This document shows positions 23,101 through 26,100 of a stretch of 64,000 bases of DNA, piece after piece (positions within the stretch are counted from its first letter, which is position 1; every line of letters begins with the position of its first letter). A program made the position numbers. The DNA lies in the NCBI RefSeq assembly GCF_053078305.1, contig NZ_CP166879.1. The stretch is one strand, 5' to 3'.

Positions 23101-26100
23101 TTGGTATTCTGGTGCGTGAGGCCGGAAAAACCTTCAGTAACGCCATTGCCGAAGTGCGTGAAGCGGTCGATTTTCTCCACTACTACGCCGGACAGGTGCG
23201 GGATGATTTCGCTAACGAAACCCATCGTCCATTAGGGCCTGTGGTATGTATCAGCCCGTGGAACTTCCCGCTGGCGATTTTCACCGGGCAGATTGCTGCC
23301 GCACTGGCGGCAGGTAACAGCGTGCTGGCAAAACCGGCAGAACAAACACCGCTGATTGCCGCGCAAGGGATCGCCATTTTGCTGGAAGCGGGTGTACCGC
23401 CAGGCGTGGTGCAGTTGCTGCCAGGTCAGGGGGAAACCGTGGGCGCGCAACTGACGGGTGATGATCGCGTGCGCGGGGTGATGTTTACCGGTTCAACCGA
23501 AGTCGCTACGTTACTGCAGCGCAATATCGCCAGCCGCCTGGACGCTCAGGGTCGCCCTATTCCGCTCATCGCTGAAACCGGCGGCATGAACGCGATGATT
23601 GTCGATTCTTCAGCACTGACCGAACAAGTAGTAATAGATGTGCTGGCCTCGGCGTTCGACAGTGCGGGTCAGCGTTGTTCGGCACTGCGCGTGCTGTGCC
23701 TGCAAGATGAGATTGCCGACCACACGTTGAAAATGCTGCGCGGCGCAATGGCCGAATGTCGGATGGGTAATCCGGGTCGCCTGACCACTGATATCGGTCC
23801 GGTGATTGATAGCGAAGCGAAAGCCAATATCGAGCGTCATATTCAGACCATGCGTAGCAAAGGCCGTCCGGTGTTCCAGGCGGTACGGGAAAACAACGAA
23901 GATGCCCGTGAATGGCAAAGCGGCACCTTTGTCGCCCCGACGCTGATCGAACTGGATGACTTTGCCGAATTGCAAAAAGAGGTCTTTGGTCCGGTGCTGC
24001 ATGTGGTGCGTTACAACCGTAACCAGCTGCCGGAGCTGATCGAGCAGATTAACGCTTCCGGTTATGGTCTGACGCTTGGCGTCCACACGCGCATTGATGA
24101 AACCATCGCCCAGGTCACTGGCTCGGCCCATGTCGGTAACCTGTACGTTAACCGTAATATGGTGGGCGCAGTGGTGGGTGTGCAGCCATTCGGCGGCGAA
24201 GGATTGTCCGGCACCGGGCCAAAAGCAGGCGGTCCGCTCTATCTCTACCGTCTACTGGCGAATCGCCCGGAAAGTGCGCTGGCAGTGACGCTCGCGCGTC
24301 AGGATGCAGAGTATCCGGTCGATGCGCAGTTGAAAGCCGCATTGACTCAGCCGCTAAATGCACTGCGGGAATGGGCAGCAAATCGCCCAGAATTGCAGGC
24401 GTTATGTACGCAATATGGCGAGCTGGCGCAGGCAGGAACACAACGATTGCTGCCAGGGCCGACGGGTGAGCGCAACACCTGGACGCTGCTGCCGCGTGAG
24501 CGCGTATTGTGTATCGCGGATGATGAACAGGATGCGCTGACTCAGCTCGCCGCCGTGCTGGCGGTGGGCAGCCAGGTGCTGTGGCCAGATGACGCGCTGC
24601 ATCGTCAGTTAGTGAAGGCATTGCCATCGACTGTCAGCGAGCGTATTCAACTGGCGAAAGCGGAAAATATTACCGCTCAACCGTTTGATGCGGTGATCTT
24701 CCACGGTGATTCGGATCAGCTTCGCGCATTGTGTGAAGCAGTTGCCGCACGGGATGGAGCAATTGTTTCGGTGCAGGGTTTTGCCCGTGGCGAAAGCAAT
24801 ATCCTTCTGGAACGGCTGTATATCGAGCGTTCGCTGAGTGTGAATACCGCTGCCGCTGGCGGTAACGCCAGCTTAATGACGATCGGTTAAACAGGTAGCC
24901 GGAGGATGTTACACCTTCCTCCGGCATCATTAGCGTGGTCGAATCCCCTCAATAATAATCCGCTGCACGTTTTCAACCGTTTGATTGAAAAATACCTCAT
25001 CGCGCAACGTTGCGCCTGTCACCGCCTCCACCTGAGGGGCGAAATCGGCGTAATGTTGAGTGGAAGCCCAAATCATAAAAATCAAATGCTGCGGATCAAT
25101 CGGCGCGAGTTTGCCGCTTTTGACCCAACCGGCAATCAGCGCCGATTTCTCATCAATTAATGCCTTCAAATCGCCCGTCAGTTCATCCATTAACAGCGGC
25201 GCGCCTGCCAGCATCTCCATACAGAACAGGCGCGAAGCCTGCGGATAATCGCGTGAGACTTCCAGCTTCAGACGGATGTACTCTTTGATCGCCGCCAGCG
25301 GGGCGAAATCTTCACGAAACGCTTTTAACGGTGCCAGCCAGATATCGAGAATCTGCCGCAGCACGGCAATATACAGCGCCTCTTTTGACGGAAAGTAATA
25401 CAGCAGATTGGTTTTTGAAACACCCGCCAACTCTGCGATCTGTTCCAGCCGTGTGCCGTGAAAACCGAATTGTGAAAAAGTGTCCAGTGCTGCGCTAAGA
25501 ATCGCTTTTTTCTTCGCACTGACTGCGCGCGAACGTTTACCCGTTGTTTTCACTGCACCTTGCGTCATGCGCTCTCCCCTCTTGTAGATTGGCAACAGGA
25601 TAGCAAAACCCCCGCCCGGCCTCGACCTTCTGCACTCTCATCGCGCACGGATGCATGTTTTATGTGCAACTGTTTTGACCGTTTAGTCCACTTTTTACCA
25701 GATATTTTAGATAACGCAATGTTAACACATTAATAACATTCACTTTTTAAAAACTGGCATCCGCTTTGCAAACAAGACAATACGCGGCTGAAAAGGATAT
25801 GCAGGATGCAGCGCCCCGTCTGACTTTCACTTTACGAGACGAAGAGAGGTTGATGATGAAAATTGGCGTATTCGTACCTATTGGCAACAACGGCTGGCTC
25901 ATTTCGACCCACGCGCCGCAGTACATGCCGACCTTTGAACTGAATAAAGCCATCGTGCAAAAAGCGGAGCACTACCATTTCGATTTCGCCCTGTCGATGA
26001 TCAAACTGCGTGGCTTTGGCGGCAAAACTGAGTTCTGGGATCACAACCTTGAGTCGTTCACCTTGATGGCGGGGCTGGCGGCCGTGACCTCGCGCATTCA

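Follow-up and report, generated by a model that had tools for sequence, protein, structure and literature searches.

In the 64,000-nucleotide stretch of contig NZ_CP166879.1 analysed here (assembly GCF_053078305.1; hereafter the window, whose numbering is used for all positions), the segment 25569-25798 is the divergent control region of Escherichia coli rutR, on the minus strand, and of the operon rutABCDEFG, on the plus strand. We are highly confident that the whole of this segment can be explained as a divergent switch, in which a sigma-54 promoter, an NtrC enhancer and an operator of the repressor RutR are combined. The rutR-rutA control region has already been characterised, and the two sites named in it by the original prediction, a RutR-like box and a -24/-12 element, are the published ones. 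The spacer between the two genes is 230 bp long and, compared with that of K-12 MG1655 (rutR-rutABCDEFG, b1013/b1012), it contains no insertions or deletions and five single-base substitutions (25649, 25717, 25728, 25741 and 25777), none of which alters a specified base of any of the sites proposed below; the RutR box, the sigma-54 motif and the NtrC-like sites are identical in both.

The -24/-12 element had been described as TGGCAT-N5-TTGCA upstream of rutA, and TGGCAT-CCGCT-TTGCA does occur at 25755-25770 on the plus strand, with its GG (25756-57) and GC (25768-69) doublets 10 bp apart and one mismatch to the consensus TGGCAC-N5-TTGCW. The 17-mer at 25754-25770, CTGGCATCCGCTTTGCA, which we assign as the sigma-54 promoter of rutABCDEFG, is letter for letter the motif of peak OS10, mapped upstream of rutA, on the minus strand in K-12, by chromatin immunoprecipitation and sequencing (ChIP-seq) (Bonocora et al. 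2015, PMC4591121). The sigma-54 holoenzyme on its own picks out this same place in genomic SELEX (gSELEX), with a peak at 1073268 (PMC8743547). Occupancy by sigma-54 is therefore taken from identity to published K-12 data and not from a new assay, and the comparison with the K-12 rutA promoter coordinates, which had been proposed as a check of the element, gave a positive answer with respect to occupancy. By the rule that transcription begins 19 bp downstream of the motif centre (PMC4591121), the rutA start is predicted at 25781 (+/-2 nt) on the plus strand, which leaves 18 bp to the annotated start of rutA (PMC4591121); with this start point G25757 would be at -24 and C25769 at -12.

The RutR box, TTGACCGTTTAGTCCA, was found at 25675-25690, at the very coordinates at which it had been predicted. 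It is the reverse complement of TGGACTAAACGGTCAA, the site that Shimada et al. (2008) assigned to the rutA-rutR spacer by chromatin immunoprecipitation on microarrays (ChIP-chip) and that was also identified by gSELEX (PMC2475637). The box is identical to the K-12 sequence; its centre, 25682.5, reproduces the published offset of -114.5 from the nearest start codon (the rutR ATG at 25568; PMC2475637), and the key positions 4 and 13 of the 16-bp dyad TTGACCAnnTGGTCAA are intact in it, being A and T, respectively. With the identical K-12 sequence, RutR forms a single complex on the rutA-rutR fragment in electrophoretic mobility shift assays (EMSA), with a Kd of about 8.6 nM, uracil being half-inhibitory at around 9 nM (PMC2952853), and four substitutions in the box abolish the uracil-sensitive autoregulation of rutR, yielding an operator-constitutive mutant (PMC4325133). 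Binding of RutR and its release by uracil are thus assigned to the window through sequence identity to the ChIP-chip, EMSA and operator-mutant data, and an equivalog of RutR is encoded alongside, at 24930-25568. As the box precedes the predicted rutA start by about 98 bp (centre at approximately -98.5) and is located downstream of the rutR transcription start (PMC4325133), it serves both divergent units.

An upstream activating sequence for NtrC was defined as the 17-bp dyad TGCACC-N5-GGTGCA, usually paired on one helical face. The centres of two candidate sites of this type, TGCACTCTCATCGCGCA at 25631-25647 and TGCATGTTTTATGTGCA at 25652-25668, are separated by 21 bp and fall at about -142 and -121 relative to the predicted rutA start. 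Each differs by one mismatch from TGCAC-N7-GTGCA, and they are the only matches to this consensus with one mismatch or fewer in the 64 kb; by single-motif statistics the consensus is not enriched in the window. The RutR box follows 6 bp past the second site, with a centre-to-centre distance of 22.5 bp. We infer the exact NtrC sites from consensus, position and conservation; the literature searched yielded no footprint of NtrC on them. For the locus as a whole, ChIP-seq of nitrogen-starved cells detected a 94-fold NtrC enrichment at rutA, under its former name ycdM (PMC4066584), and the expression of rutA is NtrC-dependent, as cited in PMC10891134. These data agree with the earlier reading of the genes as the nitrogen-regulated pyrimidine-degradation operon. 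The span originally proposed for the control elements, 25675-25770, was right in enclosing both named sites and too narrow in leaving outside the candidate NtrC enhancer (25631-25668) and the divergent rutR promoter; nor had the IHF-like site described below (25723-25735) been named.

None of the single motifs is enriched in the window: the RutR consensus, allowing three mismatches, has 23 matches in the 64 kb for 26.4 expected, and the sigma-54 consensus, allowing one, has 2 for 2.15 expected, which is the chance level. For this reason a motif match was dropped as evidence, and we relied on the composite arrangement, on its conservation and on the literature. We fetched 80 rutA loci from one-per-species genomes; the scanned set (n=80) consisted of the 79 loci with scannable upstream DNA plus the window, and comprised Enterobacterales of the genera Escherichia, Enterobacter, Leclercia, Lelliottia, Kosakonia, Phytobacter, Raoultella, Klebsiella, Mangrovibacter, Buttiauxella, Pantoea, Erwinia, Tatumella, Yersinia, Serratia and others. 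The element TGGCA-N6-TTGCA was present in 80/80 rutA upstream regions, with TGGCA and TTGCA 90-100% conserved, and so was a RutR-like box, located 68-90 bp upstream of the sigma-54 element, the TTGACC and GTC of which showed the same degree of conservation. In most loci, NtrC-like sites were found still further upstream, about 23 and about 44 bp from the RutR box. The TGCAC and GCA ends of site 1 are conserved at about 90% and lie at a fixed distance of 44 bp from the box, and the GTGCA arm of site 2, conserved at 90% or more, lies 23-24 bp from it in most loci, so that candidate NtrC sites of kept position stand upstream of the sigma-54 promoter, as expected of its enhancer. In the MAFFT alignment the arms of the sites were 90-100% conserved versus a background of 10-50%, and the order NtrC1-NtrC2-RutR-IHF-like-sigma54 (IHF, integration host factor) was kept across the 80 loci together with the spacings of 21, 23-24 and 32 bp. 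In 300 simulated windows there was no instance of a sigma-54 motif preceded by both a RutR-like box (within 200 bp upstream) and one or more NtrC-like sites (within 250 bp upstream); when two NtrC sites are required, the composite is expected analytically about 1e-6 times per window. The composite arrangement is not a product of chance.

In Erwiniaceae and Yersiniaceae a second RutR-like box was observed 19 bp downstream of the first (loci L033, L034, L042, L049, L062, L064, L068, L075-L077, L080 and L081). Measured from the rutA ATG, this second box lies at about -172 to -177 or -140, and it accounts for the 9-bp longer distance from box to promoter in these families. Its E. coli counterpart, at an equal offset, is a half-site only, TTTACCA, at 25694-25700.

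The AT-rich spacer between the RutR box and the promoter contains an IHF-like core, TAACACATTAATA, read on the minus strand at 25723-25735 (centre about -52), which has one mismatch to YAANNNNTTGATW; a core of the form WATCAANNNNTTR located between enhancer and promoter was what we looked for, bearing in mind that this consensus is degenerate and the spacer AT-rich. In 53/80 loci a match with one mismatch or fewer precedes TGGCA by exactly 32 bp, and such matches are nearly absent from the rest of the spacer; perfect matches to the core occur in several genera, including Yersinia and Serratia. Consensus, position and conservation together indicate that this is a probable, putative IHF site, for which our literature search retrieved no publication linking IHF to rut or rutA. 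The same conserved block, 25722-25735, could instead belong to the divergent sigma-70 promoter of rutR, a possibility that we consider real but clearly the less likely one. It contains TTAACA-like hexamers, and the literature puts the rutR promoter to the right of the RutR box because the box is downstream of the rutR start (PMC4325133). Nevertheless, the conserved letters of the block fit YAANNNNTTGATW, perfectly so in Yersinia, Serratia and others, its spacing is fixed to the sigma-54 -24 element (32 bp) and not to the RutR box, and no pair of sigma-70 hexamers passes a simple scan. It is worth pointing out that the two roles are not mutually exclusive.

The reading of the segment as a sigma-54/NtrC/RutR switch has to be weighed against several published and negative results. 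No experimentally mapped rutA 5' end was found in the searchable literature, so the start point is a predicted one, and the rutA promoter was listed as 'predicted' in EcoCyc in 2015 (PMC4591121). The NtrC ChIP-seq interval, 1073221-1073301 (U00096.2), corresponds to 25732-25812 of the window, that is, to the promoter and not to the enhancer, about 100 bp off. At the place of the NtrC-alone gSELEX binding-site table in PMC8743547, rutA does not appear. Finally, the role of RutR at rutA is described in one paper as 'activation' (PMC2952853), and deletion of rutR did not raise the rutA mRNA in exponential phase (PMC10891134). In the same ChIP-seq data set the NtrC interval coincides with the sigma-54 motif at glnK, glnH, ddpX and astC as well (PMC4066584, PMC4591121), so the offset is probably a property of the data set and says little about the exact sites; with NtrC alone, the gSELEX signal at rutA was probably below the 40% cut-off used. 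The unraised rutA mRNA in the rutR deletion fits an activator-limited promoter or a dual requirement.

These considerations bear on two further explanations. It could be argued that the -24/-12 match is a site occupied by sigma-54 but unproductive, rutA being transcribed from another promoter, e.g. a sigma-70 one: most of the sigma-54 holoenzyme was transcriptionally inactive in the conditions of the study that mapped it, where many sites were non-canonical (PMC4591121), the literature searched offers no mapped rutA start, and rutA is low even without RutR (PMC10891134). We regard this as very improbable, given that the motif is intergenic and in sense orientation, with its predicted start 18 bp from the annotated rutA start, that in 80/80 loci it is kept, an NtrC-like enhancer lying at a constant distance from it, and that NtrC is at the locus during nitrogen starvation (PMC4066584), with expression being NtrC-dependent. 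Moreover, a sigma-70 consensus scan of 25540-25880 gave nothing passing on either strand, the -10 and -35 elements of rutR included, which were not located. Even less credible, to the point of being negligible, is that TTGACCGTTTAGTCCA is not a RutR operator but a chance or promoter-like sequence, its TTGACC resembling a -35 hexamer. Matches of equal quality do occur in the window at chance frequency, and TTGACCGTTTAGTCCA agrees with the consensus at only 11/14 positions (PMC2475637), but it is identical to the site recovered by ChIP-chip and gSELEX (PMC2475637), binds RutR at nanomolar concentrations in a uracil-sensitive manner (PMC2952853), loses autoregulation upon four substitutions (PMC4325133), and is conserved beside rutR across genera with no sigma-70-like partner hexamer found. 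In fact, the literature on the identical sequence, with its binding and operator-mutant data, had already refuted this option.

With the divergent switch as the preferred explanation, we propose the following sequence of events. The sigma-54 RNA polymerase would form a closed complex on 25754-25770, unable to initiate without an activator. Upon nitrogen limitation, phosphorylated NtrC would assemble on the tandem sites of 25631-25668 and contact the polymerase by DNA looping, probably with the help of a bend that IHF induces at about -52; the promoter would then be opened by ATP hydrolysis, and transcription would begin near 25781. In the absence of uracil, a RutR dimer on 25675-25690, between enhancer and promoter, would damp both divergent units, and uracil releases it from the box. 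Because the three upstream sites are kept in the same phase across genera, we favour the idea that RutR hinders, by steric interference, the assembly of the NtrC oligomer, or else the looping.

The proposed arrangement resembles that of glnAp2 and glnHp2, which likewise have a GG-N10-GC promoter preceded, at more than 100 bp, by NtrC dyads in tandem, and an AT-rich, bendable spacer with an IHF-like site. In the rut region, in contrast to these promoters, a TetR-family repressor has its operator between enhancer and promoter, and this operator shares a helical face with the candidate NtrC sites (the centres being 21 and 22.5 bp apart); the spacer must also hold a divergent sigma-70 promoter.

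The RutR box of carAB P1, TTGACCATTTGGTCCA, belongs to the same family of 16-bp dyads as the rut box and is bound with a similar affinity, with Kd values of 9.5 nM for carAB and 8.6 nM for rut (PMC2952853). The two boxes differ in that the one at carAB matches the consensus at 13/14 positions, compared with 11/14 for rut (PMC2475637), and that the rut box is released at an approximately ten-fold lower uracil concentration (PMC2952853). They also differ in position and effect: the carAB box is a distant upstream site, at -184.5, whose effect is positive (anti-repression), whereas the rut box is negative for both divergent units (PMC4325133).

The rutA coding sequence is annotated in K-12 from the ATG at 25799 (382 aa), while the Prokaryotic Genome Annotation Pipeline (PGAP) and NCBIfam place its start at the ATG at 25856 (363 aa, beginning with MKIGV), which gives a plus-strand gene of 25856-26947. 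The product matches the RutA profile TIGR03612 with 725.8 bits for a cut-off of 498, and the profile begins at residue 1 of the short form (NCBIfam). The 19-codon extension of K-12 was considered as a conserved RutA N-terminus and rejected: its frame relative to MKIG is mixed among loci (0, 1 and 2), many of which have in-frame stops. The comparison suggests that the long start is probably not the conserved one. Among genera, the sigma-54 motif is separated from the MKIG start by 56-185 bp.

The 5' leader of rutA contains a conserved block at 25782-25819 (plus strand; ACGCGGC...GGA...GCAGGATGC..GCCCCGT), with invariant or near-invariant columns in the 52 long-leader loci, the alignment of which gives the pattern [A/G]CGnnGC ... 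GGA ... GCAGGA(T/A)GCA nn GCnnCG(T/C) within the first 40 nt or so. The block is absent from 13 loci with leaders of 30-44 nt. In the window GCAGGATGC lies at 25801-25809 and a second GGA at 25795-25797, and GCAGGATGC could form a small hairpin with GGA in its loop, similar to a CsrA site; in Pantoea two hairpin-like GGA elements stand in tandem. The same letters can also be read as a short open reading frame (ORF), (M/V/L)Q(D/E)AxP/QR, whose variation falls mostly at third codon positions and whose frame relative to rutA is mixed across loci. A nearby start codon was scored as lacking in 18/52 loci, a figure that is too high because the motif match was misplaced in about nine Pantoea-type loci; the loci that truly lack one number at least 10. 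Rfam showed no match to 25550-25950, not even with the threshold relaxed to E = 10, RNAalifold predicted for the leader only a trivial 2-bp hairpin, and a flanking helix drawn by hand showed one covarying pair only, likely a single clade event. The CsrA data obtained by cross-linking, immunoprecipitation and sequencing (CLIP-seq; PMC5694010 supplement) contain no peak at rutA, which is uninformative given that rut was not expressed in those conditions. A CsrA peak within the rutR coding sequence is present in that supplement (PMC5694010) at 1074528-1074704 of U00096.3; converted by the start-codon offset, it corresponds to about 25106-25282 of the window, on the minus strand.

We tentatively entertain, as a proposal that may well turn out wrong, that two features of the region are possibly undescribed. 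One is a leader element, either a short ORF or a GGA hairpin of the CsrA type (GCAGGAUGC, present twice in Pantoea), which, if the proposal were true, would add a post-transcriptional layer to the control of rut. The other is a rigidly phased module of the two NtrC-type sites and the RutR box, accompanied by an IHF-like site whose distance from the -24 element is fixed; this arrangement would suggest that RutR blocks the assembly of the NtrC oligomer rather than the binding of polymerase.

Regarding the surrounding genes, the minus-strand gene at 24930-25568 encodes the TetR-family uracil-responsive repressor RutR, with 463.6 bits to the NCBIfam equivalog profile NF011584 (cut-off 230), and rutR is annotated at the same place in K-12 and in a 99.8%-identical E. 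coli genome. The gene order putA-rutR-rutA-rutB-rutC... is that of K-12, putA, rutR and rutA-E being the shared neighbours. Of 5426 complete E. coli genomes, 5421 contain the 401 bases 25500-25900, in every case between an annotated rutR and an annotated rutA. The original finding, recorded as expected core-genome biology, was correct but ordinary. The 66-bp NtrC-NtrC-RutR module is present at 95-100% identity in 5417/5426. The identity to 25500-25900 is 99% or higher in only 51/5421 genomes and 95-99% in the majority; judged from its sequence, the window carries a less common, slightly unusual allele of the rut region. A few copies of this region were located on plasmids (7 places).

In summary, our analysis has little weight as a discovery, and what is gained is a full coordinate map of the rut control region that includes the candidate NtrC enhancer and the probable IHF site, a caveat on the rutA start point, which is predicted only, and a pointer to the non-conserved start codon of K-12 and to the conserved leader element. 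Furthermore, the footprint drawn across genera marks the bases of the rut switch that are under selection. As the canonical control region is intact, this strain should regulate pyrimidine catabolism in response to both nitrogen, through NtrC and sigma-54, and uracil, through RutR, as K-12 does.

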